Source of the DNA: an uncultured Caldilineales bacterium
GTDB taxonomy: Bacteria; Chloroflexota; Anaerolineae; JAAEKA01
DNA length: 64,000 nt
NCBI GenBank assembly: GCA_937907455.1
Contig: CALESQ010000082.1
Location: forward strand, 10,898-74,897
Reading direction: 5' to 3'
Shown: positions 10,732 to 60,313 of the stretch, piece after piece
How positions within the stretch are numbered: the first letter of the stretch is position 1
How the letters are laid out: each line of letters begins with the position of its first letter
Program-made: the position numbers and the translations under genes
The notes under the pieces: model-generated
Told to the model about the DNA's origin: nothing
Seen by the model: the letters and a program-made list of their open reading frames with translations, nothing else
Databases searched by the model: none

Positions 10732-11060
10732 TCAAATATGACTTTGACCCAACGCGATACGGATCAGTGATAGCCGGCACGATGGTGTCGGCTTGAGCGC
10801 CCCCTGGGCTTTCAGCCTGCGGGGTGCTGCGCAAAAACGCCCCAGCACGGGGTCATATTCGCAGCGCCATAGTTCCGTCTGGCGCACACCGCTCGAGTTG
10901 GTGGTGATAGCGGTGGAGGTCAGGTGGTCGTTGAGCAGGTAGAACGTGTTGCCGCCAGTGCGCATTGCGACGCGGACGGCTCCGGCGTAGTAGTCCCTTG
11001 GGGAGGCTACGCACTACTTGCGCACGGTCGTCCGGTTGTCGCGCTCGTAGTAGGCGTCGA
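10732..11060 (-). pseudogene. RHS/YD-repeat core fragment (remnant A), disrupted by a 23-nt insertion with an in-frame TAG and a 35-nt junction insertion; the toxin tip is almost entirely deleted
   Basis: Translation: ...YERDNRTTVRK*CVASPRDYYAG...FYLLNDHLTSTAITTNSSG...YDPVLGRF followed by the hairpin insertion at 10799-10833 and then a short ADTIVPAITDPY remnant. Confidence 0.6.
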
Positions 11061-11062
11061 CC

Positions 11063-11476
11063 TCACGAATTCTCTGCCAACCACCCCAGGAAAGCCGCCG
11101 GAGTGACGATGCGGATACCGTGATGCTCTCCCAAGTCCAAGAGGTGGTGGTCACCGGAAACGATCATCGATGCTCCGGCGACAAGGGCGCACTCAATAAA
11201 CATGTCGTCGTCCCGGTCGTTGTGAACCACATGCAAGTTGCCGGTGATCTCCACCTGCTGACCGAAGCGCCGAAAGTCGTAAACTGCGGCACGGACGTTG
11301 TCGGCCGAAAAACCGAACTTGTCGTAGAGTTTTTCGGAGAACTCGGCCAGCATCTCGCGGCAATAGACCACATCAACCAATCCCGCTCGGGCCGCCAGCC
11401 AGCACTTGTAGGCCGCGCCGCGCCAAAGCACGGCTGCGAGACGAACGTTGGTGTCAAAGACGACTTTGTCAGTCAC
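11063..11476 (-). CDS. PIN-domain toxin (TIGR00305-like) of a type II toxin-antitoxin pair
   Basis: 137 aa with acidic PIN residues (VFDTNV, HNDRDDDMFIE, VSGDHHL); overlaps the upstream small ORF by 8 nt. Confidence 0.7.
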   Translation of the reverse strand: MTDKVVFDTNVRLAAVLWRGAAYKCWLAARAGLVDVVYCREMLAEFSEKLYDKFGFSADNVRAAVYDFRRFGQQVEITGNLHVVHNDRDDDMFIECALVAGASMIVSGDHHLLDLGEHHGIRIVTPAAFLGWLAENS

Positions 11477-11723
11477 GGCGGTCTTCGTGTTTCAGCTCGT
11501 CGATGAGTTGCATACGTTCGTCTTCCGAAAGTGCATCCCAATCGAGACCTCGCTGCGCCGAGATGGCTCGCATGCGCTGATTTCCGTAGGCCACCAGGTT
11601 GTCCAGGTCTTCCAGGTCGGAGATGAGCGCCCGTAGCAACGCGTGTTTGCCGTTGGGCGTAAGTTGACGCGCCAAGCCGATCATTTGTGCCTCTGGTAGG
11701 GGGAGAAGAACCGTTGCTTCCAT
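11469..11723 (-). CDS. putative antitoxin partner of the PIN toxin
   Basis: 84-aa ORF immediately upstream and overlapping the PIN gene; typical TA gene order and size. Confidence 0.5.
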   Translation of the reverse strand: MEATVLLPLPEAQMIGLARQLTPNGKHALLRALISDLEDLDNLVAYGNQRMRAISAQRGLDWDALSEDERMQLIDELKHEDRRD

Positions 11724-11789
11724 GGAAAACGCCTCACACTGGGACCGGATGTCTATGCACTGATATCGCCAGGATAGATTTTACTATGG

Positions 11790-11930
11790 TTGGCGCTTGA
11801 TCGCAAACCGCATATCCATGACACTACTATCTGCCCGCCGCTGCTATTTGTGGTGATGGCGGTGGACGTCAGGCTTGTCTTGAGCATGGTCGAAAAATGG
11901 TCGTTGATTGGGTGCGCAGAGCGGATAGTG
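11790..11930 (-). pseudogene. short RHS core remnant B (...LKTSLTSTAITTNSSG...)
   Basis: Shares the DHL-STAITTNSSG segment with the other RHS core fragments; flanking sequence is unrelated. Confidence 0.35.
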
Positions 11931-12012
11931 CCGCCGATGTGTTGATGCAAAGAGATGCACATCAACACACCGGCGGAGTACTCATTAGGTTGGTAATTAT
12001 CGGCCTTCTGCC

Positions 12013-12366
12013 CTATCTTCCAGCAACGCGTCGCCTCCTGAGCCATTCCACGACAAGCCATGCAATCAGCAGGTTGACGACCAGCGTCAGAGACAACCAG
12101 GCGATGCGATCGTCATGCTCCGCCACCAGCAATACAAGGATCGAGTTGACAATGAGCAGAGATACAGCATAGAACTGAGCGCCAAAACTGCCTGGGTCGA
12201 CGGCAGGTGTCCCGGGGTAGCCAGAAATCCAAGCAAGCCAAGTGGGTATTGGCACCGCATCTGAAGTTGATCTCGAGTATCGCTGCCTTGGGAAGGCCAC
12301 CAGCCATATTACGCCGAATCCTATAAAACCCAATACCCAGTCAGTAATTGCTTCACTCATTGCCAA
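12013..12366 (-). CDS. small membrane protein; putative immunity protein for the adjacent RHS toxin tip
   Basis: 117 aa with three TM helices; immediately downstream of and overlapping the tip at 12357-13067, the position typical for RHS immunity genes. Confidence 0.45.
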   Translation of the reverse strand: MAMSEAITDWVLGFIGFGVIWLVAFPRQRYSRSTSDAVPIPTWLAWISGYPGTPAVDPGSFGAQFYAVSLLIVNSILVLLVAEHDDRIAWLSLTLVVNLLIAWLVVEWLRRRRVAGR

Positions 12367-13620
12367 CGCGCGCGCCTCCCCTGTTTTTCTCTGGTAGGTT
12401 TTGACGGCGCGGGAGTGGCAGCTCTGCCCTGTGAGCGAGATGGCTGCTGGATTCTATCGATCACGGCACTCGCTGGAGCATTTGATGCTATGCCTCCTGC
12501 GAACGACCGAACCACCGCTGGAAAGGCAACCGCTGCGTTTGTCAAGTCCTCGCTAACGATATTACGCGCCTCGTCAGCCCAGCGAGACAACCAAGGCGAG
12601 GCCCTATCCGGTGGCAAGGGATTGGCGCTCTTCAATGGCCCGATTATCCTCGCGGCCACGGATCCAAGTCCGACACTAACCATCAAATCAGCAGGATTGA
12701 CTTGCCGGCCATTCACTGCTTGACTTGCCAAGTATTGTGCGCCGCTCGCCACGGCGTTTGTTACCACAGCCCCCGCCACGGTGGTTGCGGTCAATGGAGC
12801 AAAGAACCCCACAGTAGCACTAACCATCGTTGCCACCCTTACATCCTTCCAATTGATCGTATCCCACCTTTCTTCCAGCGTTCCATCGCTACCAAGCATT
12901 TGACCGGCTAAGGACCCCACAAAACCGACTGTGCCAACGATCAAGCCAGACACTGCCATTGCAGCGATGGGTATGAAAAAATGGCCGCTGGGATCGCTAT
13001 ACTTGAGCGGGTTATTCAGCACATAGCTGTACCTGTTCAGCGCCTGCGGATTGCCCGGCTCCGGCACGATGGTGTCGGCTTGAGCGCCCCTGGGCTTTCA
13101 GCCTGCGGGATGCTGCGCAAAAACGTCCCAACTGCGCATTATACCAGCGCACGTTGTAAAAGCACAGCCCGATTGATGCCTTCGGCAGTCTTCCCACTGA
13201 CCTGTAAAGCGCCACGTGATGGGTGTCGTGCCGGTGCTGAAGCGCGTCTTGTTTTAGGGTTTGTACAGCACCTTGCCTAACAAGCTGCCATCAGTCCCGT
13301 TGGCCGTAACGTTGGTGCCGCCTAAGTGGTCACCGAGCAGGTAGCAGGTCTCCACGCCGCTACGCATCGCCACGCGCGCGCTACCGGCGTAGTAGTCCCT
13401 CCGGGAGGCTACGCACTACTTTCTGACCGTCGTGCCGTTGTCGCGCTCGTAAGTGTTGCCGATGTAGACGGTGGTCACCCCGCCCACCGTGGCCTTGACG
13501 CGCTTGCCGTCGCCGTCGTAGACATAGGTGGCGTTCACACCGCTGCCCGTGATGCTGGTCACGTGGTTCTCCACGTCGTAGGCCAGGGTCACGTCCTGGT
13601 TGCCGTTGATGCGCCAAGCT
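12357..13620 (-). pseudogene. orphan RHS C-terminal cassette C: core fragment (13068-13620, carrying both the 23-nt and 34-nt insertions) plus a toxin tip (12357-13067) with predicted membrane-spanning/glycine-rich segments
   Basis: Core: YD repeats (YVYDGDGKRV, TYERDNGT), RK*CVASRRDYYAGSARVAMR, RWYNAQLGRF then the 34-nt insertion at 13086-13119. Tip starts PEPGNPQALNRYSYVLNNPLKYSDPSGH. Confidence 0.6.
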
Positions 13621-13625
13621 CAATC

Positions 13626-13668
13626 ATGGGCCTCACAGACTCTCCGGTCTGCGAGGCCCATGATGCGT
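13626..13668. other. perfect 11-bp-stem palindrome (tcatgggcctc ... gaggcccatga) at the upstream boundary of cassette C
   Basis: Seen directly; it separates the cassette D immunity gene from the cassette C core fragment. Confidence 0.5.
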
Positions 13669-13691
13669 GCTTTCGCCAGTGGTTCAGCCAT

Positions 13692-14201
13692 TTACTCCTG
13701 GTCTTCATCCATGGACTGTTCGAGGGCGTCGATCAATCGGGATAGCCTGATCTCCAGCGCCTTATGCCCCGATGTGCCGGCCTCTGGCATGCCTGTGATT
13801 TCTGCCGCCGCCACACGCGTCTCGGCGATGGGATGTCGCGATCCATCATCGTCCTGGCTGTACTCCACGGTCCATGCGTGGCCGAACATGTCGATGCGGC
13901 CGAAGCACGGAACGGGCCAATCTTCACGATTGAAGGGACGATCAGTAAGAATCAACGGCCACTCGCCATAGATGATCCCCAGATCGCCGAACCATTCGAC
14001 AAGGATAGCTTGCGACGAGCTGAGATGATTGATATCTGTGGCCGTGGGTGGCAGCTTATAGTGAAATGGAAAGAAGTATCCTAGACCTCCTTTCGTCTTC
14101 AGACTACCACGAACGATAATGCCTGCAGCGTACCCGCCGCTCTGCAATGGTACAGCAAACCATTGTCCTTCACGATACCGGATCCGCTTGGTTCTTGTCA
14201 T
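13692..14201 (-). CDS. putative immunity protein for the GIY-YIG-like RHS tip (cytoplasmic, 169 aa)
   Basis: ORF immediately downstream of the tip at 14214-14936 in the same orientation; no TM segments and no detectable catalytic motifs. Confidence 0.4.
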   Translation of the reverse strand: MTRTKRIRYREGQWFAVPLQSGGYAAGIIVRGSLKTKGGLGYFFPFHYKLPPTATDINHLSSSQAILVEWFGDLGIIYGEWPLILTDRPFNREDWPVPCFGRIDMFGHAWTVEYSQDDDGSRHPIAETRVAAAEITGMPEAGTSGHKALEIRLSRLIDALEQSMDEDQE

Positions 14202-14213
14202 CGGAGACTCCTG

Positions 14214-14988
14214 CTACTGCATTCCGGCCCGCCGTGCTGCGTTGATATACTGGGCGCGTCGTGGATTGCGCGGACTGATAGGTTGGATCTTGTTCTGGGG
14301 GGGCTGATAGCGGTCATAGAGTATCTGTTCTGCGCCTCGTTGCACCTCGCGACTATTCGATTGAAACTCGGCATTGAATCGCAACTCGGGAAAACTGCGA
14401 CCGTGTTCAGCTTCTCGTCGAGCCAGGTTATTGGTGCGACCTGTATATTGCACGTTGCCATTGGCCGGATCTCGCAACGTGTAGACGCCTCCAGATGGAG
14501 TGTTGGCAGTCGCCGCGGCGGGTGTAGTCGGTGCGCGGTTGGCAGCCCTCGGCACATCACTCGCCCGGTTCGCCAGCTCGCCAGCATTCTCAGCCTGCCG
14601 GACCACCGCGGCGGCCTCATCGGCGTGGGTGGCGACCTCGATGATCTCATCAACGTGCGCTGCCGCCTTCGCCACATCATCGGCGTGCGCCAACCCGCGC
14701 ACCAACAGCCCGCCCCCGGTCGCTACCGGGATGATCAGCCCCGCGACATCGGCCGCCAACGAAAGACCACCGATCCACGTCAGGCCATTGGTCTTGATGT
14801 CGGAGATGTCATAGGCGATAAACGCAATGTCGAACGCGCTCTCGACCCAATGACCGCTTGGATCGGTATACTTGAGCAGATTACCGTTTACATAGCTATA
14901 CCTGTTCAGCGACTGCGGGTCGCCCGGTTCCGGCACGATGGTGTCGGCTTGAGCGCCCCTGGGCTTTCAGCCTGCGGGGTGCTGCGCA
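14214..14988 (-). pseudogene. orphan RHS C-terminal cassette D: only the junction (with the 34-nt insertion at 14955-14988) plus a tip carrying a GIY-YIG-like nuclease domain
   Basis: Tip begins PEPGDPQSLNRYSYVNGNLLKYTDPSGH. C-terminal GGVYTLRDPANGNVQYTGRTNNLARREAEHGR fits the GIY-(10-11)-YIG...R...E nuclease pattern. Only about 12 nt of RHS core are retained upstream of the insertion. Confidence 0.55.
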
Positions 14989-15015
14989 AAAACGTCCCAG
15001 CACGGATCGCTTCTC

Positions 15016-15639
15016 TTATTCGAAGTCAATGACTAGGGGCCGTCCATCCTTCGGCCATGCATGCGCCGGCTTGTCATCTGGAAAGACTTCGGCCAAGGTA
15101 CCAGGTTGTACTCGATTCAGAAGATTTAAACGAAAAGACGAATCGAGGCGGAGCGATGCTTGCCTGGGAGGAAAGAAGTAGTATTTCCATCCAGATGCGA
15201 CGATTCCCTGATCCTGCCAAAAAAGATCCACCCGGAGCCGAAAACTTTCCACATCCCGCCCATAGGTACCATAGTAGGAATCAGGTTGTCCCAAGCACGC
15301 TATCAGGTCACGCATGGTAGGACCTTTACCATTATAATCAATGTGCATGCCACTCAGTGTTGAATTCTTTAGATTTATCACATAGTTTGTCTTGCCGCTA
15401 CTCCATGAGATTTTTTGAAATGTTCGATCGACATGCAGACGATCTTCAGATACCTGGAGATATTGCGTAACCCAGGTTTGCATTTGATCCAACGAAACCG
15501 GTATGGTGAAGTAATCTTCCAGGCCAGTAGCAACCATTTCGCTACAATCACGTTGCGGAAGCCATCCGGTGCAGCTGGACAATAGAAAAACTATTAACAG
15601 AACAATATGTTTCGTTATGTGGTGGAATGAGGATTTCAT
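15016..15639 (-). CDS. lipoprotein; putative immunity protein for the HExxH toxin tip
   Basis: 207 aa with a lipobox (LLSSC); low GC (about 42%) versus 62% background; directly downstream of the tip gene with a 4-nt overlap. Confidence 0.5.
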   Translation of the reverse strand: MKSSFHHITKHIVLLIVFLLSSCTGWLPQRDCSEMVATGLEDYFTIPVSLDQMQTWVTQYLQVSEDRLHVDRTFQKISWSSGKTNYVINLKNSTLSGMHIDYNGKGPTMRDLIACLGQPDSYYGTYGRDVESFRLRVDLFWQDQGIVASGWKYYFFPPRQASLRLDSSFRLNLLNRVQPGTLAEVFPDDKPAHAWPKDGRPLVIDFE

Positions 15640-16820
15640 TGTAGGAATGCATTCATTATATTCATCTGGTAACGCAACTCTTGGCTCCAGTGCTCTCCCA
15701 GATGTTTCTGAATTTCAGTATTCTTATAGCCTGATACTCCCATAGTAACATCGTAAAAAACCCACACCGTCACCGCTTCGGCCCAGCGTTCCCAAGCGCG
15801 TACGCACCCTATACAGCTCTCGGCATAATCTGTCAGAGCAGTTCCGCTCCAGGCCATCGAGAACGGCTGGAGATGTGTTTGACCATAGCTTGTGGTACCT
15901 ACCCACATCCTGTTATGCCAATCAATGACGTGAGCCAGTTCATGGACTATGGTGGTTCGATTGTACAAATCATCGTTGACGAAAGGTATTTTTACATTTG
16001 AAGTGCCTGGAAGTAATGCGTTGGGACGCCCGAAAAACGATCCTTCCTTAATCGTTACTGGTCCGCCTAACAGCTTGCCAAGTTGCGCTAAACCGGCTTG
16101 TACAAGCCCTGATCCAAGTCTGCGTCCGAACTCAACCACACCTTGCCCCATGGCTGACATTTGTGCAGCATTCGACTGCCAATTCCATTGACCGGAAAAC
16201 GAGATGCCCGCTTCGGCTAACACTTCGTTAAGTATTCCTATATCGGCGAATGAGGCCAGGCCTGCTGCAGACCATCCGCTGCCGTTATCAAAGTACCCGT
16301 GCGCATTATACCAGCGATTCTTCCAGTACCATTCATTCTCCCAGCAGGCGTGGTCATCGCCAGCGCAGGCGGCATGGCCGCTGGGATCGCTATACTTGAG
16401 CGGGTTATTCAGCACATAGCTATACCTGTTCAGCGACTGCGGGTCGCCCGGCTCCGGCACGATGGTGTCGGCTTGAGCAAAACGTCCCAGCACGGGGTCG
16501 TAGAAGCGCGCGTTATAATACATCAACCCGCCGATGCCAGGGTCGCGCTGGCCGGTGAATGTATAGCTGGTCGGCAGTGCATTGCTGCCTCCGCTGCGCA
16601 GTGATCCCCACGGGTAGTAACGCTGTGCCGTGGAGGTGCTGGTCGCCGTGTTGTACGTGACATTGGTGCTGCCGAGATGGTCGGCAAACAAGTAGTGGAC
16701 CTGGTTCGCGCCGGTCGTGCCGTCCTGCACACGCATGGCAACGCGGCGGCCGGCGGCATGGTAGTAGCTGCGCCAGGTGTAGTTGGCCGGCAAGACGGCT
16801 ACGAGCGCCGGCTCCATCAT
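15636..16820 (-). CDS. orphan RHS C-terminal fragment with an intact core/tip junction and an HExxH metallopeptidase-like toxin domain
   Basis: ...YTWRSYYHAAGRRVAMR...YYLFADHLGSTNV...RFYDPVLGRFAQADTIVPEPGDPQSLNRYSYVLNNPLKYSDPSGH then a ~270-aa domain with HELAHVIDW. It has neither the 34-nt nor the 23-nt insertion. Only ~130 aa of core, so it is still an orphan without its own N-terminus. The tip region has lower GC. Confidence 0.6.
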   Translation of the reverse strand: MMEPALVAVLPANYTWRSYYHAAGRRVAMRVQDGTTGANQVHYLFADHLGSTNVTYNTATSTSTAQRYYPWGSLRSGGSNALPTSYTFTGQRDPGIGGLMYYNARFYDPVLGRFAQADTIVPEPGDPQSLNRYSYVLNNPLKYSDPSGHAACAGDDHACWENEWYWKNRWYNAHGYFDNGSGWSAAGLASFADIGILNEVLAEAGISFSGQWNWQSNAAQMSAMGQGVVEFGRRLGSGLVQAGLAQLGKLLGGPVTIKEGSFFGRPNALLPGTSNVKIPFVNDDLYNRTTIVHELAHVIDWHNRMWVGTTSYGQTHLQPFSMAWSGTALTDYAESCIGCVRAWERWAEAVTVWVFYDVTMGVSGYKNTEIQKHLGEHWSQELRYQMNIMNAFLQ

Positions 16821-16841
16821 AGATGGTCAATGTCATGGCGC

Positions 16842-17324
16842 TTACCCGCTCTTGCGGACCTGCCGACCCAGGTAACGAATCGCCACCCAAACAGCGAAAG
16901 TGATTATCACAATAGCCAGAGCGCTTCCATACGTCACACTCCGTTGATACGCTGGATCGCAGGCCAAGGACATGCGAGAGGCGCGCGCAGCGGATTGTGT
17001 TGAGATCAATACCGCGCATAACATGCGTTGAATCACCATGCTTCCGATCAAAGCTAACAAAGCTGTTAGCCATATAGCTAAATCCGCCAGGCAAGATGCA
17101 CCTCCCCATATCTGGTAGATCAAGATCGCTAGCAAACCACCGACAGTTAGGTAAAAAACTGTAAGTATCTGAAACGCTAGCGTTCCATTGGGATACAAAC
17201 CAATGACTGGAACAGATACGTTGATCACAGCCAGAATTACTGCCGCAGCAATTCCAAAACAGATGCTAAGGATAAATGCCCTGAACAACGCTGATCGGGC
17301 TGTCGGGTCGACGTCTAATCTCAT
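16842..17324 (-). CDS. four-TM membrane protein; putative immunity protein for the glycine-zipper tip
   Basis: 160 aa, hydrophobic, directly downstream of the tip at 17352-18140. Confidence 0.45.
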   Translation of the reverse strand: MRLDVDPTARSALFRAFILSICFGIAAAVILAVINVSVPVIGLYPNGTLAFQILTVFYLTVGGLLAILIYQIWGGASCLADLAIWLTALLALIGSMVIQRMLCAVLISTQSAARASRMSLACDPAYQRSVTYGSALAIVIITFAVWVAIRYLGRQVRKSG

Positions 17325-17351
17325 GAATGAGTCTCCTGAACCTTGACGACG

Positions 17352-18744
17352 CTATGGCCCCGTGTATCCAACTGCTTGCTGACTCCACTCTTGAACGGCA
17401 GCGTCAATGAGCTGCTGCAGGATCTCTGAAGCCACATCATATGTCCCGGCAGAGATTGCCTTCATTATGTTCTCCAGATGACTCGCAGACAAGTTCACTG
17501 TTCGTCCTTCGAGTACGATTTGGCCGCGCAGTACTCCATTGCCAGGCAGGAGCCGGATCATTGGGACGCCGCCCTTGAAGACCTGGTCACCCAACGAGTT
17601 CAGGATCGGGTTCATCAGCTTTTGCATCCCATATCCTGCACCTGCGGACACGCTGCCTCCAAGTGCATCAAAGGTCATAGTCTGGACATCCAGGAAACCA
17701 GCATCCAATGCGCTTTGGAGCAATGCATCATTATTCCAGCCCTGCCCATGCATCCATTGAACAAGTTGTTTGCTCCCACCCTCTGTCAACGCCGCAGCTT
17801 GTCCACCCAAAGCACCACCGACACCTCCCAGGGCCACTGTTCCATATACGCCAACGCCCAGATAGGTACCGATACCCAACGTCCCTCCGGCCACTGCCCC
17901 TCCCATAAATCCTGCTGCTACCTTGCCACCATCGACCTTAAGTGCTGCATCCCCGAATGACATTCCCGCATTTAGGTTGTTCATCACCTGGGGTACATAT
18001 GCGATTGCTGCACCAATCACGCCTCCGATTAATGCGGTCGCAAGCAGTGGAGAATGGCCGTCGCTATCAACGAACTTGATAGGGTTGTTAAGGACATAGC
18101 TATACCTGTTCAGCGACTGCGGGTCGCCCGGCTCCGGCACGATGGTGTCGGCTTGAGCGCCCCTGGGCTTTCAGCCTGCGGGGTGCTGCGCAAAAACGTC
18201 CCAGCACGGGGTCGTAGAAGCGCGCGTTGTAATACATCAACCCGCCGATGCCAGGGTCGCGCTGGCCGGTGAATGTATAGCTGGTCGGCAGTGCATTGCT
18301 GCCTCCGCTGCGCAGTGATCCCCACGGGTAGTAGCGTTGAGCCACGGTCTGGCCGTCACCGGCACGATAGCTCACGCTGCTGGAACCCAGGTGGTCGCTG
18401 AACAGATAGTAAACCTGGTTCGATGTTGTGCTGCGCACACGCATGGCAATGCGCTGCCCACCCAGGCTATAGTAGCTGCGCCAGACATGAGTAGCCGGTG
18501 GATTTACATCCGGTGCAGCAGCCGCATTCTCCACCAGCTCTGCCGGCTGCGCCGCCACTACAGGAGAGATGACCGCACCGGGTTGTACCTCACGAACAGC
18601 TTCTGGCATTACAGATTGCTGCATGGATGTATCCGCCTGACCGCCGGGGAGCGTATAGGTCACCACCAGTTTAGGTCTACGGGTGGCTGTACCGTTTTCG
18701 CGGCTGCCAAAGTAGTAGCTCATGATGGCGCTGTTCAGCGGCAA
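17352..18744 (-). pseudogene. orphan RHS C-terminal cassette F: core fragment (about 18141-18500, with the 34-nt insertion at 18159-18192 and no 23-nt insertion) plus a glycine-zipper-rich, membrane-active-type tip (17352-18140)
   Basis: Core: HVWRSYYSLGGQRIAMR...YYLFSDHLGSSSV...RFYDPVLGRF then the insertion. Tip: PEPGDPQSLNRYSYVLNNPIKFVDSDGH followed by GxxxG-rich hydrophobic segments. Confidence 0.6.
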
Positions 18745-18975
18745 CGTGGGTCGCAGCCGGCGTTACCATCCCTGCCAACAAAGAAACCGCCACTATCCAA
18801 AATTAACCGCGCAGTAAACCTGAAGTCTTCACAACTTTCCTCCGACAGCTTGTGAGTGTCTGTGCCCTGTTCCGGTCAACGGCGTTAGTCATAAGAAGAA
18901 CATGGCCCGCTTTATCTGCATTCGTCGCAGCATAGCGTAATTATAACAACGATTTGCAATAGCGACAAATATCAG

Positions 18976-19143
18976 GTTGTGTATGGATTTCGGTTGAAAT
19001 GTGTTGCCACCGAATTGAATTCGGTGTCTCAAGCCACGAAGCCCCTGCCGGGGCTTTCGGAGAGCGCCTGAGAGCGCTTCGTTCTCTGAACCGCAACCAT
19101 GTATTGTCCGGCTCTTGTCATTCAACCGAAAGTCGCACACTAC
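18976..19143 (+). mobile_element. MITE-like element, copy 1 (168 bp; ~25-bp imperfect terminal inverted repeats; flanked by the 9-10 bp direct repeat CAAATATCA(G))
   Basis: caaatatcag at 18966-18975 and again at 19144-19153. The ends are ggttgtgtatggatttcggttgaaatg and cattcaaccgaaagtcgcaca, which are inverted repeats. About 90% identical to the copy at 52180. Confidence 0.6.
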
Positions 19144-19237
19144 CAAATATCAGCCCGATTCGGATGACCACAAACTGCCCTCAGCCTGATTTCTGACAGC
19201 TAAGATGGCCCCAGCGCAGATAACAACGGACGCTGTG

Positions 19238-25549: not shown

Positions 25550-27205
25550 ATGACCCGCACCATCCACGCGCCGCGCGGCGCACAACTCACCTGCAAAAAC
25601 TGGCTGATCGAAGCTGCTTATCGCATGATCCAGAACAACCTTGACCCCGAGGTGGCGTTTGACCCTGCCAACCTGGTGGTATACGGCGGACGTGGCCGCG
25701 CTGCCCGCAACTGGGCCAGCTACGACGCCATTCTGCGCTCGCTGGAGACGCTGGAGCCGGATGAAACCTTATTAGTGCAGAGCGGCAAGCCGGTGGCGAT
25801 CTTTCGCACACACGAGGACGCGCCGCGCGTCCTGATCGCCAACAGCAACATCGTGCCGCACTGGGCCACGCAGGAAAATTTCGACCGCTGGGAGCGCGAC
25901 GGGCTGATTATGTTCGGCCAGATGACCGCGGGGTCGTGGATTTACATCGGCACGCAGGGTATTTTGCAGGGAACCTATGAAACCTTCGGCAGTCTGGCGC
26001 GACAACAAGGCTGGGCTGATGGCCTGCGCGGCAAGCTGGTGCTCACCGCGGGCCTGGGCGAGATGGGCGGCGCGCAGCCGCTGGCTGTTACCATGAACGG
26101 CGGCGTAGCGGTGGTGGCGGATGTGGACCCCTGGCGCATTGAGCGCCGGTTGGCGCATCGCTATCTCGATGTGTCCACCGACAGCCTGGAAGAAGCGATG
26201 ACCTGGGCGGAGGAAGCGCGGGCGCGCGGCGAAGCCAAATCTATCGGCCTGCTGGGCAACGCGGCCGAGGTGCTGCCAGAGCTGGTGCAGCGTGGTATCG
26301 TGCCTGACATCGTTACTGACCAGACCAGCGCGCACGATCCGCTGCTGGGCTATATTCCCGCGGGCTATTCGCTGGAGGCTGCGGCCGCGCTGCGCGAGCA
26401 TGACCGTACCGCGTATCTCGATGCGGCGATGCAAAGCATGGCCGCGCACGTCGAGGCGATGCTGGCAATGCAGCGCGCGGGGGCCATCGTGTTCGACTAC
26501 GGCAACAACCTGCGTCAGCGCGCCTATGATTACGGCGTAAAAGATGCGTTTTCGTACCCCGGCTTCGTGCCCGCGTTCATCCGCCCGCTCTTCTGCGAAG
26601 GCAGCGGCCCCTTCCGCTGGGTAGCGCTCAGCGGCGACCCCGAAGACATCCGCGTCACCGATCAGATCATCCTGGACCTGTTCCCCGAAAACGAACATTT
26701 GCACCGCTGGATCACGATGGCCCAGGAGCGGGTGGCTTTTCAGGGCCTGCCGGCGCGCATTTGCTGGCTGAAATATGGTGAGCGCGCCCAGGCTGGGCTG
26801 GCGTTCAATCAGGCTGTGGCCGAGGGCCGCGTCAAGGCCCCGATCGTGATTGGCCGTGACCATCTCGACAGCGGCTCGGTAGCCAGCCCCAACCGTGAAA
26901 CCGAGGGGATGCGCGACGGCTCCGACGCGATCAGCGACTGGCCGATTTTGAACGCGTTGGTCAACGCGGTGGGTGGGGCCACCTGGGTCAGCTTCCACCA
27001 CGGCGGCGGCGTAGGCATTGGCTACAGCCAGCACGCCGGGCAGGTGATCGTGGCCGACGGTACAGAGGCCGCGGCGCGGCGTCTGCAGCGTGTCCTCACC
27101 ACCGACCCCGGCATGGGTGTGGTGCGTCACGTGGACGCGGGCTACCCCGAAGCGATCAGCTTCGCGCGCGAGGCAGGCATCAAAGTGCCGATGCTCGACG
27201 TTTGA
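25550..27205 (+). CDS. hutU: urocanate hydratase
   Basis: 551 aa; strong identity to HutU over its whole length ([10 protein letters not shown]..., NAD-binding region, C-terminal GYPEAI). Confidence 0.9.
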
Positions 27206-27710
27206 ACCTGCGATCCTGTTTGATCTGCCATTTAAGCGGGTTTTGGATGATATAACGGCGAATGGCGTGCAAGGCGCGCTGGTTGCGAATGATGCGTTCG
27301 TAATAGTTGCGTTTCCACACTGCGGTTCCCTGCGTCTTGCGCAGGCGGTTGATCTTGCGTGCAGATTCGGTTTTGAAACCGCGAATGACTTCGGTCACGC
27401 TATGACGTTTGGGCGCAGGGGTTCGCCGTGTGCGCGGTTCTTCCAGCAAGATAAAGATCGCGTGAATATGATCGGGCATCAACACAAATTGGTCTAGTTG
27501 TAAGTAGGGGTAGTGCTTGGGGAGCGCGGTGAGTACCATGTGTACCAGATGACCGTAACGACTGGGATGAAATACGCCATCCACAACGCTGCCGAGGATC
27601 GGCTTGCGGTTTTTAACAACGATGGTGATGAAGTAGCCCCCCGGTTGGCTGTAGTCATAACCCTTAAGACGGATGGAGCGCCGATGATGACGCGACGGAT
27701 CATATGGCAT
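27180..27710 (-). CDS. REP-associated tyrosine transposase (RAYT; IS200/IS605-like TnpA_REP)
   Basis: 176 aa from [12 protein letters not shown]; HIHAIF (HuH motif) and YYERIIRN (catalytic Tyr); GGAGGG RBS upstream. The listed 270-aa ORF continues into the REP array only because the repeats contain no stop codons. Confidence 0.8.
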
Positions 27711-27730
27711 GAGGTCCCTCCTGTCTGAGC

Positions 27731-28945
27731 GTGGAATCAGGGTCTGGGCAGGTGCGCCGTGGTAAGCGACGAATCCGCGTGAGCATGGGATCAGGGTCTG
27801 GGCAGGTGCGCCGTGGTAAGCGGCGAATCTGCGTGAGTGTGGGATCAGGGTCTGGGCAGGTGCGCCGTGGTAAGCGACGAATCCGCGTGAGCGTGGGATC
27901 AGGGTCTGAGGGCAGGTGCGCCGTGGTAAGCGACGAATCCGCGTGAGCGTGGATGCCGCCCTGGCAGCGAGTCGACGTCTGCGGCGGCGCACCTGCCCTC
28001 ACGCGTGGCGCCGTGGTAAGCGGCGAATCCGCGTGAGCGTGGAATCAGGGTCTGGGCAGGTGCGCCGTGGTAAGCGGCGAATCCGCGTGAGTGTGGATGC
28101 CGCCCTGGCAGCGAGTCGACGTCTGCGGCGGCGCACCTGCCCTCACGCGTGGCGCCGTGGTAAGCGGCGAATCCGCGTGAGCGTGGAATCAGGGTCTGGG
28201 CAGGTGCGCCGTGGTAAGCGGCGAATCCGCGTGAGTGTGGATGCCGCCCTGGCAGCGAGTCGACGTCTGCGGCGGCGCACCTGCCCTCACGCGGTGCGCC
28301 GTGGTAAGCGGCGAATCCGCGTGAGTGTGGATGCCGCCCTGGCAGCGAGTCGACGTCTGCGGCGGCGCACCTGCCCTCACGCGTGGCGCCGTGGTAAGCG
28401 GCGAATCCGCGTGAGCGTGGATGCCGCCCTGGCAGCGAGTCGACGTCTGCGGCGGCGCACCTGCCCTCACGCGTGGCGCCGTGGTAAGCGGCGAATCCGC
28501 GTGAGCGTGGAATCAGGGTCTGGGCAGGTGCGCCGTGGTAAGCGGCGAATCCGCGTGAGTGTGGATGCCGCCCTGGCAGCGAGTCGACGTCTGCGGCGGC
28601 GCACCTGCCCTCACGCGCGGCCCTGGCAGCGAGTCGACATCTGCGGCAGCGCACCTGCCCTCACGCGCGGCGCCGTGGTAAGCGACGAATCCGCGTGAGC
28701 GTGGATGCCGCCCTGGCAGCGAGTCGACGTCTGCGGCGGCGCACCTGCCCTCACGCGTGGCGCCGCGGTAAGCGACGAATCCGCGTGAGCGTGGATGCCG
28801 CCCTGGCAGCGAGTCGACATCTGCGGCGGCGCACCTGCCATCACGCGCGGCGCCGTGGTAAGCGACGAATCCGCGTGAGCGTGGATGCCGCCCTGGCAGC
28901 GAGTCGACGTCTGCGGCAGCGCACCTGCCCTCACGCGCGCGCTCG
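27731..28945. repeat. REP/REPIN (BIME-like) array of about 17 tandem units built from two unit types (about 54 nt and about 90 nt); both carry GGCAGGTGCGCCG or its reverse complement plus GTGG heads
   Basis: Seen directly. Unit A: gtggRatcagggtctgggcaggtgcgccgtggtaagcgRcgaatccgcgtgagc. Unit B: gtggatgccgccctggcagcgagtcgacgtctgcggcggcgcacctgccctcacgcgtggcgccgtggtaagcggcgaatccgcgtgagc. Inverted REP pairs form REPIN hairpins. The array is adjacent to the RAYT gene. Confidence 0.8.
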
Positions 28946-28950
28946 TGCCC

Positions 28951-29646
28951 TTACGGGGACGGAGGAGCTAGTGCTGCGCGCCGAGCGATGGCCGCTGTCG
29001 CGGCATCACGCACACGCCAGTCTTCACGTTTATCGTCGCGATGCGTAACCAGCGCTTTCTCAACCTCGGCATCGCCCCATTTAGCCAGCCCCAGCGCAGC
29101 GGCACGACGCACCATAGGAGTTTTATCACTGTTCAGCAGCTTCAACAACGTTACCTGCACATGCGGAGCTGCCGGCATACCATCTTTTGTAGCAGGCAGG
29201 GGAGCCATGCGCGCTAACGCTTCGCCAGCGCTTTGGCGTACCGCAGAGTCGCGACTGAGCAGCAGTACCACTAATGCCTCGACGCTGTCATCACGGGTGG
29301 GCATTGCACCCAACCCATCGGCAGCAGCGGCCTGTACCGCGGATTTTGGTGATGAAGCAGCTTTCAGCAACACAGCTCGACTTGCACTGCTATCTAGTGC
29401 AGCCAGCGTCAACGCAGCTTCCGAACGCACAATCGGATCAGCCGCATCCAGCAGATCGCCCAATGCGGTGATTTCGTCGCGCCCTGCACCGGTCTCGATC
29501 AGAGTTCGCATGGCGTGCAGACAACGCGCGGCATAGCCGCTGGTCAGATCGGCCAGCAACGCGTGCCGCTGCGCGGCATCCAGCTTACGTCCTGCCGTAT
29601 CAACAGCAGCGATGCGTTGGAACCAGGTTTGAATTGTTTGTAGCAT
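28951..29646 (-). CDS. HEAT-repeat (PBS lyase-like) protein
   Basis: 231 aa of repeated A.VR..AA.ALG helical units. Confidence 0.55.
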   Translation of the reverse strand: MLQTIQTWFQRIAAVDTAGRKLDAAQRHALLADLTSGYAARCLHAMRTLIETGAGRDEITALGDLLDAADPIVRSEAALTLAALDSSASRAVLLKAASSPKSAVQAAAADGLGAMPTRDDSVEALVVLLLSRDSAVRQSAGEALARMAPLPATKDGMPAAPHVQVTLLKLLNSDKTPMVRRAAALGLAKWGDAEVEKALVTHRDDKREDWRVRDAATAAIARRAALAPPSP

Positions 29647-52179: not shown

Positions 52180-52344
52180 GGTTGTGTATGGATTTCGGTT
52201 GAAATGTGTTGCCACCGAATCGAATTCGGTGTCTCAAGCCACGAAGCCCCTGTCGGGGCTTTCGGAGAGCGCCTGAGTGCGCTTCGTTCTTTAAGCCGGA
52301 ACCATTGATTGTCCGGCTCTTATAATTCAACCGAAAGTCGCACA
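52180..52344 (+). mobile_element. MITE-like element, copy 2 (flanked by the 8-bp direct repeat GAAACTTG)
   Basis: gaaacttg at 52172-52179 and again immediately after the element; internal hairpins (accgaatcgaattcggt, gaagcccctgtcggggcttc, agccggaaccattgattgtccggct); lies 260 nt upstream of ccr. Confidence 0.6.
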
Positions 52345-52606
52345 TTATCGAAACTTGCCAAAAGCGCCCGCTTATGACACAATGCGTCATGACGTTAATC
52401 TGGTAACGTTCCGCTTTTTTTGGGTAGGTGATTGTCATGCAACCGTGGGCCTCGACGATGATAGCCCAGTCTGCTTGCGCGGCGCACAGGCGCTTTTTTT
52501 CGCCTGCACTGATTGATCGCGCCCTTCCCCTGCCTGCTTGCTCCCTTTCCGCTTCCCATTATTTTCCCCCCGTAAACCTGATACTGTGCGCAAGGAGGCC
52601 ACAACG

Positions 52607-57698: not shown

Positions 57699-59396
57699 AT
57701 GACAGACCCCCATTTCCACCCCCTTGCCGATGCGCTGCACGCCTGGGAAACCGGCGATCTGGCAAAGTCCACCGAGCGCGCGCCGGAACGCGCGGAAACC
57801 GAGGCGTTTCCGCGGCTGGCAACACCACTCGATGCCGGGCCGCAGCCGCCCGCTGCGGCTGATCAGCAATGGTATCTGGACAAGCTGAGCTTTCCCGGCC
57901 AGTATCCCTTCACGCGCGGGGTGCAGCCCACCATGTACCGTTCCCGCTTCTGGACGATGCGCCAGTATGCGGGCTATGGCACGGCGGCCGAGGCCAACGA
58001 GCGCTTCAAATACCTGCTGGGCCAGGGTCAAACCGGCCTTAGCATCGCCTTCGACCTGGCGACACAGATCGGCTACGACAGCGACGACCCGCTGGCTGCG
58101 GGCGAGGTGGGGCAGGCAGGCGTGGCGATTGACTCGCTGGCTGACATGGAGGCGCTACTCGACGGCATTCCGCTGGACAAGGTCAGCATCAGCATGACCA
58201 TCAACGCGCCGGCCAGCGTGCTGTTGGCGATGGTGATCGCCGCGGGCGAGGCGCGCGGCGTGCCTGCGGCCAAGCTCACCGGCACGATCCAGAACGACAT
58301 CCTGAAGGAATACGTCGCGCGCGGCACCTACATCTTCCCGCCCGGCCCCAGCGTGCGCCTGGCCGCGGATACCATCGCATTCTGCGCGCGCGAAGTGCCG
58401 CGCTGGAACGCGATCAGTGTCAGCGGCTACCACATCCGCGACGCGGGCAGCACCGCCGCGCAGGAGATGGGCTTTGCCATCGCCAATGCGCTGGCCTATC
58501 TGGACGCAGTGCTGGCGCGCGGCGTAGCGATTGATGACTTCGCGGGCCGCATCTCCTGGATTTTCAACACGCAAAACAACTTCTTCGAGGAAGTCGCCAA
58601 GTACCGCGCCCTGCGCCGCCTGTGGGCCACGCTGCTCAAGGAACAGTACGGCGCGCAAAAAGCCTCCAGCATGACCCTGCGCACGCACGTTCAGACCGGT
58701 GGCGCGACCCTCACCGCGCAGCAGCCGCTGAACAACATTGCCCGCGCCGGCTTTCAGGCTCTCGCCAGCGTGCTGGGCGGCATCCAAAGCATGGCTTTGA
58801 GCTGCTACGACGAGGCGTTGGCGCTGCCCACCGAGGAAGCACAGGCCACCGCGCTGCGCACGCAGCAGATCATCGCCCACGAAATCGGCGTGTCCGAGGT
58901 AATTGATCCGCTGGCAGGGTCGTATTACGTCGAAAGCCTCACGGACCAGCTCGAAGCCGAAGCGCTGGCCCTGATCAACAAGGTGCAGGAGCTGGGCGGC
59001 TCGGTGCAAGCCATCGAAAGCGGCTGGATGCAGCAGCAGATCGCGGATTCGTCCTGGCGGATGCAAAAGGCTGTCGAGGCGGGCGAGCAGATCATCGTCG
59101 GCGTCAACGCCTACCAGTCGCCCGGCGAGGAACGGCCCGTGGGCATCTTCCGCCCCGACCCCGAAACCTACCGCACCCAGCACGCCCGCCTGGAGCAGCT
59201 CAGGGCGACGCGCGACCAGGCCACGGTGCAAGCTGCGCTCAGCCGGTTGCGCGCCGTAGCCCAGGCCCCCGCTGGCCCCGACAGCAACCTGATGCCGCCC
59301 ATTCTCGACGCGGTGCGCGCCTACGCCACGCTGGGCGAAATCTGCGGCGTGCTGCGCCAGGAATGGGGCGAATACGAACCGCCGACTGTTATTTAA
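57699..59396 (+). CDS. methylmalonyl-CoA mutase family catalytic (large) subunit with no B12-binding domain (IcmA/HcmA/Ecm-like)
   Basis: 565 aa; FPGQYPFTRG, MYRSRFWTMRQYAGYG, GQTGLSIAFD, TIQNDILKEY and RTHVQT match the mutase TIM-barrel domain; no Rossmann B12 domain. Confidence 0.85.
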   Translation: MTDPHFHPLADALHAWETGDLAKSTERAPERAETEAFPRLATPLDAGPQPPAAADQQWYLDKLSFPGQYPFTRGVQPTMYRSRFWTMRQYAGYGTAAEANERFKYLLGQGQTGLSIAFDLATQIGYDSDDPLAAGEVGQAGVAIDSLADMEALLDGIPLDKVSISMTINAPASVLLAMVIAAGEARGVPAAKLTGTIQNDILKEYVARGTYIFPPGPSVRLAADTIAFCAREVPRWNAISVSGYHIRDAGSTAAQEMGFAIANALAYLDAVLARGVAIDDFAGRISWIFNTQNNFFEEVAKYRALRRLWATLLKEQYGAQKASSMTLRTHVQTGGATLTAQQPLNNIARAGFQALASVLGGIQSMALSCYDEALALPTEEAQATALRTQQIIAHEIGVSEVIDPLAGSYYVESLTDQLEAEALALINKVQELGGSVQAIESGWMQQQIADSSWRMQKAVEAGEQIIVGVNAYQSPGEERPVGIFRPDPETYRTQHARLEQLRATRDQATVQAALSRLRAVAQAPAGPDSNLMPPILDAVRAYATLGEICGVLRQEWGEYEPPTVI

Positions 59397-59790
59397 GTAG
59401 ACAAGTACACAAGTAGACAGGTAGACAAGTAGACAGGTAGACAAGTACATAAGTAGACAGGTAGACAAGTAGGCAAGTAGACAAGTACATAAGTAGACAG
59501 GTAGACAAGTACATAAGTAGACAGGTAGACAAGTAGACAGGTAGACAAGTACATAGAGGACCATTTTGTGTACTCATCCCCGTGTACTTGTGTACTCATT
59601 CCCGTGTACTTGTGTACTCACTCCTTGTGTACTCATCCCTTGTGTACTTGTGTACTCATCCCTTGTGTACTCATCCCTGTGTACTTGTGTACTCATCCCT
59701 TGTGTACTCATCCCCTGTGTACTTGTGTACTCATCCCTTGTGTACTTGTGTACTCATCCCTGTGTACTCTCCTCAGGAGACCCCTATGCT
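59397..59790. repeat. two adjacent octamer-type tandem repeat arrays filling the mutase-hydratase intergenic region (GTAGACAa/GTACAtAa, then GTGTACTt/GTGTACTCATCCCt)
   Basis: Seen directly at 59398-59555 and 59565-59775; both contain the palindromic core GTAC. Confidence 0.8.
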
Positions 59791-60247: not shown

Positions 60248-60313
60248 CTCGTAACTCGTAACTCGTAACTCGTAACTCGTAACTCGTAACTCGTAACTCG
60301 TAACTCGTAACTC
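60244..60313 (+). repeat. (GTAACTC)x10 perfect heptanucleotide tandem repeat; its first unit overlaps the TAA stop of the preceding gene
   Basis: Seen directly; related CGTNTTA x4 at 60352-60378 and gtaactcgtaacc at 57603-57615. Confidence 0.9.

Follow-up and report, generated by a model that had tools for sequence, protein, structure and literature searches.

Orphan RHS cassettes and a 34-nt insertion

The window, a 64,000-nt stretch of an uncultured Caldilineales bacterium, contains an array of five RHS cassettes (W1 to W5). All five are 5'-truncated orphans without an RHS shell. No full-length RHS gene was found at the locus, where no core remnant is longer than 214 aa. The features are as follows.

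18193..18744, minus strand: W1 core remnant (tail of an upstream domain and last part of the YD-shell/core), matching TIGR03696 positions 1-48 and, weakly, TEN_YD-shell
18159..18192, minus strand: 34-mer copy of W1 (reference sequence); excision gives ..FYDPVLGRF-AQADTIVPEPG.. leading into the intact tip
17352..18158, minus strand: W1 core end (AQAD..DSDGH) and 233-aa glycine-rich tip, an intact ORF
15636..16820, minus strand: W2, uninterrupted 394-aa orphan, core end plus HExxH-containing tip
16478..16479, minus strand: empty site of W2 (cgtttt/gctcaagcc), exactly 34 nt absent, frame open
14214..15005, minus strand: W3, 17 nt of core, 34-mer, core end, and a tip that weakly matches GIY-YIG (19.8 bits, below cutoff)
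14955..14988, minus strand: 34-mer copy of W3, identical to W1; RHS homology starts only 17 nt upstream
13692-14201: Imm26 gene after the W3 tip (62.9 bits)
12357..13610, minus strand: W4, core remnant with three mini-insertions and one in-frame TAA (13254-13256), then an intact 207-aa tip
13086..13119, minus strand: 34-mer copy of W4, one C>T substitution relative to W1
10774..11061, minus strand: W5, terminal tip-less core remnant with a type-B insertion and the 35-nt copy
10799..10833, minus strand: 35-nt copy of W5 with one extra G (34-mer match at 10800-10833 plus base 10799)
27180-27709: RAYT-like gene (Y1_Tnp), the only HUH transposase in the window

A pattern search of the window allowing at most one mismatch returned exactly four copies of the 34-mer, three of 34 nt and one of 35 nt, all on the minus (gene) strand, in agreement with an earlier note on this DNA; 100 shuffles returned none. 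On the gene strand the insert reads TGCGCAGCACCCCGCAGGCTGAAAGCCCAGGGGC, with cgtttt (..GRF) to its left and gctcaagcc (AQA..) to its right. When the five junctions are aligned, as that note had proposed, carrier W1 and the empty site of W2 have near-identical flanks (1/60 differences upstream, 3/75 downstream). The two cassettes differ by the precise presence or absence of 34 nt; the boundaries are unambiguous and the flank comparison reveals no target-site duplication. The insertion does break the reading frame: the core frame passes through the insert and stops ~30 codons later, and the tip frame meets a TGA inside the 34-mer.

Other parts of the original description needed correction. The site had been placed exactly at the core/tip junction, the cleavage boundary; it lies within the TIGR03696 Rhs_assc_core domain, at about position 48 of the 76-position profile, 35 codons upstream of the DPSGH core end (the DPxGH core/tip boundary). 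The insert does sit at a GRF/AQAD boundary, but the longer RFYDPVLGRF context proposed for it is found only in W1: W3 homology begins at 15005, 10 nt past the stop of the preceding gene; the upstream core of W4 is of a different RHS lineage (WYNAQLGRF); and W5 homology is lost at 10774, 25 nt past the insert. W2, described as the intact cassette, indeed lacks the element and is open in frame, but is itself a truncated orphan. The 34-mer is a genuine, precisely bounded miniature insertion in the conserved C-terminal RHS core domain.

A family of mini-insertions

The 34-mer belongs to a small family of tiny, GC-rich, lineage-restricted inserts. Members are 11-37 nt long, sometimes nested, and have a common 5' head, K-Y-GCG-Y-AGC. 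None has a target duplication and every one is sense-oriented. There are 15 copies at about six distinct sites in the RHS core remnants of the window and of two further loci, L004 and L005. The head motif occurs eight times in the window (2.0±1.4 expected); six of these matches lie in RHS remnants, all six on the gene strand. Inserts of 21-37 nt have only one target feature in common, a C on the 3' side. Three further window members are listed below; relatives at other sites of the same RHS fragments had not been part of the earlier description.

13396..13416, minus strand: type-B mini-insertion GTGCGTAGCCTCCCGGAGGGA of W4, inside a Tyr codon (aagTA^Ctac), where it makes a TAG stop; excision gives ..TTVRKYYYAGSARVAMR..
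10994..11014, minus strand: type-B mini-insertion GTGCGTAGCCTCCCCAAGGGA of W5, at the same core position as in W4
13177..13187, minus strand: 11-nt hairpin insertion TGCCGAAGGCA in the W4 core remnant; excision gives GQWEDSIGLCFYNVRWYNAQLGRF

A nested A-like element matches the 34-mer at 25 of 34 positions, for which chance would give 0.02 hits per window. Read from both sequences and their predicted folds, it has the same predicted two-hairpin layout as the 34-mer, with an inner-stem T-A pair changed to C-G.

The stem-loop proposed for the 34-mer can be drawn, but its stability does not exceed that of composition-matched shuffles (z from -0.2 to -1.6 for RNA, -0.18 for DNA); the 11-nt insertion alone folds better than shuffles (z -2.4). 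An Rfam search with the inserts gave no family match. These results bear on whether the insert is a regulatory hairpin (a terminator, attenuator or RNA-stability element) selected to stop transcription into the tips. A GC-rich stem-loop and, in a scan of W5, a terminator-like hairpin with a T-run overlapping the first bases of the insert fit this reading. It is nevertheless extremely improbable given the unremarkable fold, the absence of an Rfam match, a count of terminator-like structures in the region equal to the shuffle expectation, and the order of elements: on the sense strand the T-run comes before the main hairpin, and on the antisense strand it is an A-run that comes after it.

In the scans made, the 34-mer is confined to RHS fragments and is not a generic dispersed mini-repeat, the outcome that the earlier note had named as refuting its view. 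Scanning 185,579 species genomes for the exact 23-nt core gave two matches, both at the same RHS site of one other Anaerolineae metagenome-assembled genome (MAG). Diverged copies were sought in the window and ~40 kb of other loci, with none at ≥70% identity outside RHS fragments. The carriers are two related Anaerolineae genome lineages only, both MAGs. Restriction to RHS would be odd for an ordinary mobile element, since intergenic DNA should tolerate insertions too.

Mosaic flanks and possible routes of spread

The simplest account, that one insert-bearing pseudogene was duplicated as a block with its tip, would explain near-identical copies in one array. The earlier note had argued against it from unrelated tips, and we agree: the five carrier tips have no BLASTP match among one another at E≤0.01, and two pairs of homologous tips are discordant for the insert, W1(+)/L5c1(-) and L5c2(+)/L8c1(-). 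Upstream flanks also differ at 23-38 of 60 nt in most pairs of window carriers. The comparison of tips already refutes such passive inheritance, and we give it practically no credence.

What the carriers do have in common lies close to the insert. All seven read CGTTTT/A/GCTCAAGCCGACACC, and the empty sites except W2 read CG(G or C)TTC/ATC.. or CAC... W4 and W5 differ at 38 of 60 positions upstream but are near-identical from the insert to 25 nt past it; in W4 the shared sequence begins ~11 nt before the insert. The carrier cassette L5c2 of L005 is a mosaic: the 18 nt beside its insert show 0 differences from the window haplotype and 9 from its own paralog, and the following 63 nt show 12 and 3, respectively (p = 3e-4, for a partition picked post hoc in one cassette). 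The 34-mer seems to travel with its immediate flanks as a block of ~50-76 nt, a feature absent from the earlier note.

Three readings of the spread were weighed. In the first, the 34-mer and its flanks (a ~76-nt unit) would be a site-specific recombination site, like integron attC or shufflon sfx, used for insertion, deletion or exchange of tip cassettes. Each carrier cassette has a single copy, and all copies are direct repeats; W3 starts 17 nt before its insert, immediately beyond the stop codon of the gene before it; only 25 nt separate the last copy from the end of the array; and a recurrent RHS breakpoint, YD/P, lies 17 nt upstream of the insert. Still, we consider a dedicated site very improbable, and the integrase-like target suggested by the earlier note fares poorly. 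No recombinase or integrase gene was found among the array ORFs or their immediate neighbours, the 34-mer cannot be divided by eye into two inverted 13-nt arms and an 8-nt spacer, W2 has no copy on its upstream side, and elsewhere (L004) arrays end at another distance from the insert. Homologous recombination alone predicts breakpoints near conserved core ends.

The second is active transposition: each cassette would have been hit independently by a non-autonomous 34-nt element recognising CGTTT(T)/GCTCAAGCC and mobilised in trans by a HUH/Y1-type single-strand DNA transposase, following RAYT or IS200/IS605 logic. Because such enzymes insert and excise scarlessly, the insert would then be a reversible silencer. 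This is doubtful but a real possibility. The boundaries are clean, strand specificity is strict (15/15 family members), nested copies exist, the W1/W2 difference is exactly the element, and the genome encodes a Y1_Tnp/RAYT-like protein. Type-B relatives occupy several sites; in our reconstruction every one of them interrupts a Tyr codon as TA^C, and excision there restores conserved residues. REPs, too, are 20-40 bp long, are thought to be RAYT-mobilised and can lie within ORFs (PMC3733652). Against transposition, the same flanking codons always accompany the insert and in L5c2 are foreign to the local background, which clean movement of 34 nt would not yield. In addition, W2 offers a perfect target that has stayed empty, the 34-mer lacks a GTAG tag and significant hairpins, it has no similarity to the repeats flanking the window's RAYT-like gene, and no copies occur outside RHS in the window and ~40 kb of other loci.

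The third, which we take as the best reading and place at about an even chance, is that gene conversion carried a miniature insertion, flanks included, from one RHS core end to another, silencing orphan cassettes. The 34-mer would have entered a GRF/AQAD allele once or a few times; together with its immediate flanks, as a ~50-76-nt block, it would then have been copied into cassettes with unrelated tips by the process, homologous recombination or gene conversion, that also shuffles RHS core ends. The insertion, its family, its confinement to RHS fragments, the mosaic flanks and the ORFs that are intact after excision are observed directly, whereas we infer the order of events, an enzyme behind the first insertions and the silencing. 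By frameshift and stop the 34-mer would uncouple core remnant from tip, so that carrier cassettes would form a reservoir of silent orphan toxin/immunity modules, preserved intact in all other respects. Several observations count against this reading: W2, an empty site with perfect flanks, sits unconverted in mid-array, confinement to RHS is odd for a mobile element, and the repeats flanking the window's RAYT-like gene are unrelated.

Cassette integrity and comparison with known elements

Excision of the mini-insertions leaves intact, continuous and conserved core-to-tip ORFs, and the L5c2 tip shows strong purifying selection against its uninterrupted ortholog (omega 0.10). This fits inserts that are recent or tolerated; ORFs intact apart from the inserts could equally reflect their removal. 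If inserts were removed or skipped in expression, by bypassing, programmed frameshifting or unconventional RNA splicing, interrupted cassettes would stay functional. The mitochondrial byps of Magnusiomyces are translational bypassing elements. Like T4 gene 60 (PMC5462505) and the byps, our inserts are short (27-55 nt in those systems) and structured, many are rich in GC, and they lie in sense orientation within ORFs that are intact apart from them; type B alone sets its TAG stop directly before a GCGYAGC mini-hairpin, reminiscent of the gene 60 stop in an A-site hairpin (PMC5462505).

Such removal or skipping, including the bypassing or frameshifting raised in the earlier note, nonetheless appears very improbable. 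The 34-mer has neither a stop after the putative take-off codon nor a matching landing codon (no codon cognate to TTT, CGT or GGA lies 31, 34 or 37 nt further downstream), and the three copy lengths, 33, 34 and 35 nt, would each require a different frame correction. At type-B sites, take-off and landing codons match at no more than 1-2 of 6, where the original residue is still not restored. The host genes are truncated orphans without the RHS shell and hence not complete genes anyway, and Rfam offers no match. The 34-mer is a real oddity, with no sign of ribosome bypassing or of a dedicated recombinase.

REP/REPIN elements mobilised by RAYT transposases (PMC3733652; see also PMC3116915 and PMC2817692) are 20-40 bp, GC-rich, hairpin-forming and non-coding, occur in Chloroflexi and occasionally within genes, and are believed to transpose as single-stranded DNA, leaving the target unduplicated (PMC3733652), all of which resembles our inserts, as does the RAYT-like gene in the window. 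However, REPs are high-copy and mainly extragenic, whereas the mini-inserts occur only in RHS remnants, and the 34-mer has neither a GTAG nor a CGTC tag, a weak palindrome, and no relation to the RAYT-flanking repeats. Rickettsia palindromic elements (RPEs) and intragenic REPs are likewise small palindromic repeats lodged within protein-coding genes, and related genes can carry them at the same position (PMC3733652). RPEs are in frame and translated in probably functional proteins (PMC3733652), whereas the inserts here bring stops and frameshifts and are confined to one gene family. IS200/IS605 derivatives (PATEs) and other HUH single-strand DNA elements (PMC6006769) are also strand-specific, leave no target duplication, insert scarlessly beside a short target and rely on DNA hairpins; known derivatives exceed 100 nt, carry a pair of subterminal hairpins and use a defined target of four or five nucleotides, unlike inserts of 21-37 nt preceding a C. 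A full-text literature search returned nothing comparable to mini-insertions at fixed core positions of orphan RHS arrays.

Very small dispersed repeats of cyanobacteria are reportedly the subject of a 2008 article by Elhai et al. in Genome Research. They are mobile-looking, ~20-30 nt long, imperfectly palindromic and nested, like our inserts, but genome-wide in many contexts rather than in RHS only; we know of no sequence relationship between the two.

For the array itself, the closest known systems are the arrays of orphan Rhs toxin/immunity cassettes in Salmonella, E. coli and Dickeya, of which Koskiniemi et al. in 2014 are said to give an example. Both consist of tandem modules that lack an N-terminal shell and join a piece of the conserved 3' end of the core to a variable toxin tip with an immunity gene, and core-end homology is the substrate for tip exchange; here, TIGR03696 and a DPxGH end are present and Imm26 follows one tip. 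The present locus differs in having no full-length rhs gene upstream, in its Anaerolineae (Chloroflexota) MAG host, and in core ends interrupted at fixed positions by miniature insertions.

Position and effect of the 34-nt insertion

Four of the window's five RHS cassettes (W1-W5, all on the minus strand) carry the same GC-rich mini-insertion (the 34-mer), and W2 is empty. Copies were located by searching for the plus-strand form with at most one mismatch, and the empty site by comparing the flanks of W2 with those of W1. Four copies were observed, against a chance expectation of none in the window.

The 34-mer in the RHS cassettes of the window
18159-18192, minus strand: 34-mer in W1
14955-14988, minus strand: 34-mer in W3
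13086-13119, minus strand: 34-mer in W4, with one C>T change
10800-10833 (cassette label 10799), minus strand: copy in W5, 35 nt through an extra G
16479/16478, minus strand: uninterrupted site in W2

Read on the minus strand, the insert is TGCGCAGCACCCCGCAGGCTGAAAGCCCAGGGGC, flanked by cgtttt (..LGRF) and gctcaagcc (AQA..). The flanks of W2 and W1 differ at 1 of 60 positions upstream and 3 of 75 downstream, and W2 lacks exactly 34 nt; in this comparison the boundaries cannot be shifted. There is no target-site duplication at the junctions, nor are there terminal inverted repeats in the 34-mer. With its unique boundaries, these absences lead us to reject a MITE. The core frame passes through the insert and reaches a stop about 30 codons further on, while the tip frame meets a TGA inside it. 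The earlier note's precise, frame-breaking insertion in four of five cassettes is thus borne out.

The reported observation is real but mislocated, since the note had placed the insertion at the exact junction between the conserved core and the variable toxin tip. Residues 68-149 of W2 match positions 1-76 of TIGR03696 (Rhs_assc_core, NCBIfam, 76 positions; 73.2 bits). W1 before the insert matches positions 1-48, and the tip ORFs of W1, W3 and W4 after it match positions 54-76, so the insert lies within the conserved domain. Its site is 35 codons (105 nt) upstream of the DPSGH core end, where the variable tips start.

The cassettes belong to the RHS/YD-repeat orphan cassettes, with a TIGR03696 core that ends in DPxG before a variable tip. 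All five are 5'-truncated orphans (longest core remnant 214 aa), and the supposedly 'intact' W2 is a 394-aa fragment. W3 has just 17 nt of core ahead of the insert, and W5 loses RHS homology 25 nt past it. The array is flanked by a methyltransferase gene on one side and HMG-CoA reductase on the other, and no full-length main rhs gene (shell plus N-terminal domain) lies upstream of the orphans at this locus. Imm26 (62.9 bits) adjoins the W3 tip downstream; the small ORFs after the other tips match no family.

RHS arrays also hold other genes. A PIN-domain toxin gene (PIN_3, 59 bits) and a small ORF upstream of it, probably its antitoxin, occupy 11063-11723 between W4 and W5; the W5 remnant starts where the PIN gene ends. 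At L004, an RHS locus of another Anaerolineae genome, a 451-aa ORF with CxxC pairs (715-2070) truncates a cassette and is, from the appearance of its sequence, a possible IS66-family transposase.

Distribution and spread of the 34-mer

Three public contigs that encode the W2 protein (L001-L003) carry the same 34-mer copies, but because they are 99.9-100% identical to the window and come from the same strain, they give no population information. The exact 23-nt core, without flanks, was matched twice in 185,579 species represented by one genome each. Both matches are in one Anaerolineae MAG, MFD10595 bin30 (loci L004 and L005), at the GRF|AQAD site of RHS fragments. An exact-core scan of metagenomes returned only L006 (2181-2203) and L007 (469-491), from an unrelated organism, with an exact 23-nt match and 28/34 identity to the whole 34-mer. 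This match covers the last codons of a gene, its TGA and, in the space between convergent genes, the left arm of a terminator-like palindrome of 15 bp; judged by this context, it is probably due to chance.

Viral contigs were scanned with two degenerate patterns, and the 56 kb of non-RHS window together with the other loci held no copy of the 34-mer at at least 70% identity outside RHS fragments. L006/L007 is the sole non-RHS match across the exact-core, degenerate viral and at least 70% identity scans. We therefore reject a generic dispersed repeat, which the earlier note had named as a refuting outcome: outside the window, the exact core sits in the species genomes only at RHS sites of one MAG. 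Protein searches added nothing. A search with the read-through peptide found only P0001, itself from L005, and was insensitive, missing the known positive P0002; an exhaustive HMMER search of 1.84 billion cluster representatives gave no further carriers. These protein-level negatives are weak, because a read-through tail would hide inside a 50%-identity cluster.

The copies could in principle descend from one pseudogene duplicated as a block with its tip. The five tip-bearing carriers, however, have mutually unrelated tips, and both pairs of homologous tips are discordant for the insert: W1 carries it and the L005 cassette L5c1 does not (33% tip identity), and L5c2 of L005 carries it and the comparison cassette L8c1 does not (83%). 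Block duplication is therefore excluded, and the earlier note was right to find it inadequate.

All seven carriers have the immediate flanks CGT TTT | insert | GCT CAA GCC GAC ACC (the CGTTTT/GCTCAAGCC haplotype), and among seven empty sites only W2 has flanks of this type. In L5c2, the 18 nt beside the insert show 0 differences from the window haplotype and 9 from its paralog L5c1, whereas the next 63 nt show 12 differences from W1 and 3 from L5c1 (Fisher p = 3e-4 for the mosaic, with the partition picked post hoc). W4 and W5 differ at 38 of 60 upstream positions but are nearly identical over the insert and the next 25 nt. Core-end segments free of the insert are 97% identical between the two genomes (e.g. 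L005 5268-5424 versus W1), so a recombining pool of core ends exists anyway. Taken together, the shared flanks, the L5c2 mosaic, the W4/W5 pattern and the shared core ends favor a block of about 50-76 nt that spread through gene conversion or homologous recombination, and they speak against repeated clean transposition of the 34 nt.

Orphan RHS cassettes are thought to serve as a reservoir of new toxin tips, drawn on by recombination. The intact 264-codon tip of L5c2 has a dN/dS of 0.10 against an uninterrupted ortholog (dS about 1.0), and its immunity gene has a dN/dS of 0.32. Either, then, the interruptions are young compared with that divergence, or they leave selection in place. Continued selection could be explained by selection on the reservoir, by precise excision or by removal during expression. 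Our leading account, to which we give an even chance of being right, is a lineage-restricted mini-insertion that would ride on recombination between RHS core ends and would leave orphan cassettes silent but otherwise intact.

A family of mini-insertions in RHS cores

The core remnants of the window and of L004 and L005 hold further mini-insertions.

Mini-insertions besides the 34-mer
Type B: GTGCG(C/T)AGCCTC...GGAG(G/T)GGA, 21, 36 or 37 nt; in W4, W5, L004 and L005
A-like element, nested in type B: TTGCGTAGCACCCCGAAGGCCGAAGGCCGGAGTGGG, 36 nt; in L004 and L005
Hairpin insert: TGCCGAAGGCA, 11 nt; in W4
In-frame insert of different sequence: 24 nt; in L004 and L005

All inserts except the 11-nt and 24-nt ones share the head K-Y-GCG-Y-AGC. 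The window contains 8 instances of this motif, where 2.0+/-1.4 would be expected; six are in RHS remnants, each of them on the gene strand. The window, L004 and L005 together hold 15 family copies at about six distinct sites, all 15 in sense orientation, and 33.5 kb of other related contigs hold none. The A-like element equals the 34-mer at 25 of 34 positions (0.02 such hits per window by chance) and is predicted to have the same two-hairpin layout. The inner stems, GGCT-GAA-AGCC and GGCC-GAA-GGCC, differ by a compensating T-A to C-G change, read from both sequences. The family as a whole must have inserted independently at several sites. Templated copying of native RHS core was rejected as a source of the inserts, since local similarity lies within the range of shuffles.

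Excising the proposed inserts gives a continuous conserved RHS core running into an intact tip in W1, W5, L5c2 and L5c3 (the last also from L005), and likewise in W4 save for one TAA. The cassettes are thus damaged almost only by mini-insertions. In our reconstruction, type-B inserts interrupt a Tyr codon (TA^C), which makes a TAG; for the 34-mer, TTGCGC...GGGG placed in TT^C is an equally good reading.

The W4 TAA, the only stop in that cassette not made by an insertion, lies within 13248-13256 (minus strand), where ccc TAA AAC AAG replaces the expected ..KPWGE..; the stretch resembles tgg ggc gag after a cluster of five G>A changes. Upstream of cassette c2 in L005 (about 3925-3880, minus strand) is a GTAG-headed hairpin, GTAGTGCGCTGGCGCGTGACACACGCGC, bordered by a 9-nt direct duplication, GGCATGCCA; its head resembles that of type B.

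Comparison with known elements and other repeats

The earlier note proposed that the 34-mer folds as a stem-loop, but its RNA and DNA folds fall within shuffled controls, and those of the other inserts are likewise no better than shuffles, the 11-mer excepted. No Rfam match was found in the array region at E<=1 or in the whole window at the gathering threshold. An intrinsic terminator is rejected because the T-run precedes the main hairpin and terminator-like counts equal the shuffle expectation, as do the counts of promoter scans, which removes a promoter reading as well.

Two functions raised in the earlier note also found no support. Gene-60 bypassing depends on take-off and landing codons that match, on a stop following take-off and on a gap of conserved length (PMC5462505). 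By eye, the 34-mer has neither a stop behind TTT nor a cognate codon to land on. Copies are 33, 34 or 35 nt long, calling for corrections of +1, +2 or 0, and no single programmed frameshift fits all three; the 33-nt variant, a third copy in MFD10595 bin30 (in L005), is in frame yet carries a TGA. As for an integrase-like target, no recombinase gene was identified within or beside the array, and inspection by eye shows no division of the 34-mer into two inverted 13-nt arms with an 8-nt spacer between them, which argues against an integron attC or tyrosine-recombinase site. We regard the recoding and integrase ideas as unsupported.

REPs are high-copy elements of 20-40 bp whose palindrome is tagged at one end by GTAG or CGTC; they occur in Chloroflexi and are sometimes intragenic (PMC3733652). 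Unlike REPs and REPINs, which are high-copy, dispersed and mainly extragenic, the exact core of the 34-mer is known at RHS sites only, beyond the window as judged from exact-core scans of species genomes (the degenerate scan covers the window and the other loci). The 34-mer has neither tag, and in type B the TA of (G)TAG comes from the split Tyr codon, with a preceding G at only 3 of 6 sites. The 34-mer therefore fails as a REP on tag, copy number and distribution.

The window contains a RAYT-like transposase gene on the minus strand (27180-27709), which scores 28.4 bits with Pfam Y1_Tnp (cutoff 23) and is adjoined by about 1.3 kb of clustered inverted-repeat units of 54 and 90 nt (27700-29040). 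Gene and cluster (27180-29040) resemble a REPtron, although no dispersed copies of the units were found elsewhere in the window. For every insert, the best local alignments to these repeats are within the shuffle range, and we reject a link between the inserts and this RAYT. Compared with IS200/IS605-type elements, the inserts are all sense (15/15) and without duplication, at targets TA^C, TT^C or TTT^G, TC^C and CT^C. The insert sites share no fixed tetranucleotide target, and no cognate TnpA was identified.

A targeted, reversible element is a minority possibility, left by the confinement to RHS, the invariable sense orientation and ORFs that are otherwise pristine. In its full form, the inserts headed by K-Y-GCG-Y-AGC would make up a class not described before: scarless, strand-specific and ultra-small (11-37 nt), with RHS cores as their specific target. 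They would act as reversible switches on spare toxin cassettes, either through precise excision from the DNA or through being removed or skipped in the RNA or by the ribosome. We think this improbable; if true, it would explain why interrupted cassettes are otherwise pristine and under purifying selection. Under the favored block spread, one mini-insertion reached a second genome and cassettes whose tips are unrelated, its flanks being copied along with it. Should the inserts be no more than passengers of gene conversion, they would serve as a natural marker for short RHS core-end conversion tracts (about 50-76 nt). If they are targeted or can be excised, no smaller mobile element specific to a gene family would be known in bacteria, and they would be a means of holding toxin cassettes silent but recoverable.

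RHS fragments on metagenome contigs of other Chloroflexi hold other small insertions: about 100 nt bordered by a 29-nt direct target duplication (L009, 720-835), a 26-nt GC-rich piece that causes a frameshift (L010, about 1560-1590) and a perfect 13-bp palindrome, or inverted repeat (L017, about 50-120). Interruption of RHS remnants by small elements may for this reason be common across the phylum; the K-Y-GCG-Y-AGC family itself appears confined to two genomes. The abnormal C-termini of P0010, P0017 and P0019 were considered as insertions and rejected, being plain truncations at YD|P. RHS homology begins or ends at ..YNARW(YD)|P.. in four unrelated loci: window 15005 (W3), L011 (about 1550), L014 (about 1430) and L015 (about 650). 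This position, which is 17 nt upstream of where the 34-mer sits, suggests that these RHS genes have a module breakpoint that recurs.

Two other repeats were seen in the window. A 173-nt sequence occurs in two copies that are 92% identical (18975-19147 and 52180-52352); it contains several internal palindromes and matches no Rfam family. Its first copy is located after the methyltransferase gene and before the RHS cassettes begin, beside a sigma-70-like promoter match (18968-18940, minus strand). Candidate identities for the sequence are a small RNA, a MITE and a regulatory region. Dense short tandem repeats fill 59355-59780 and 60244-60320: an 8-nt AAGTAGAC-like unit over about 200 nt is followed by 15- and 23-nt units holding its reverse complement (GTGTACT), and there are six copies of GTAACTC.
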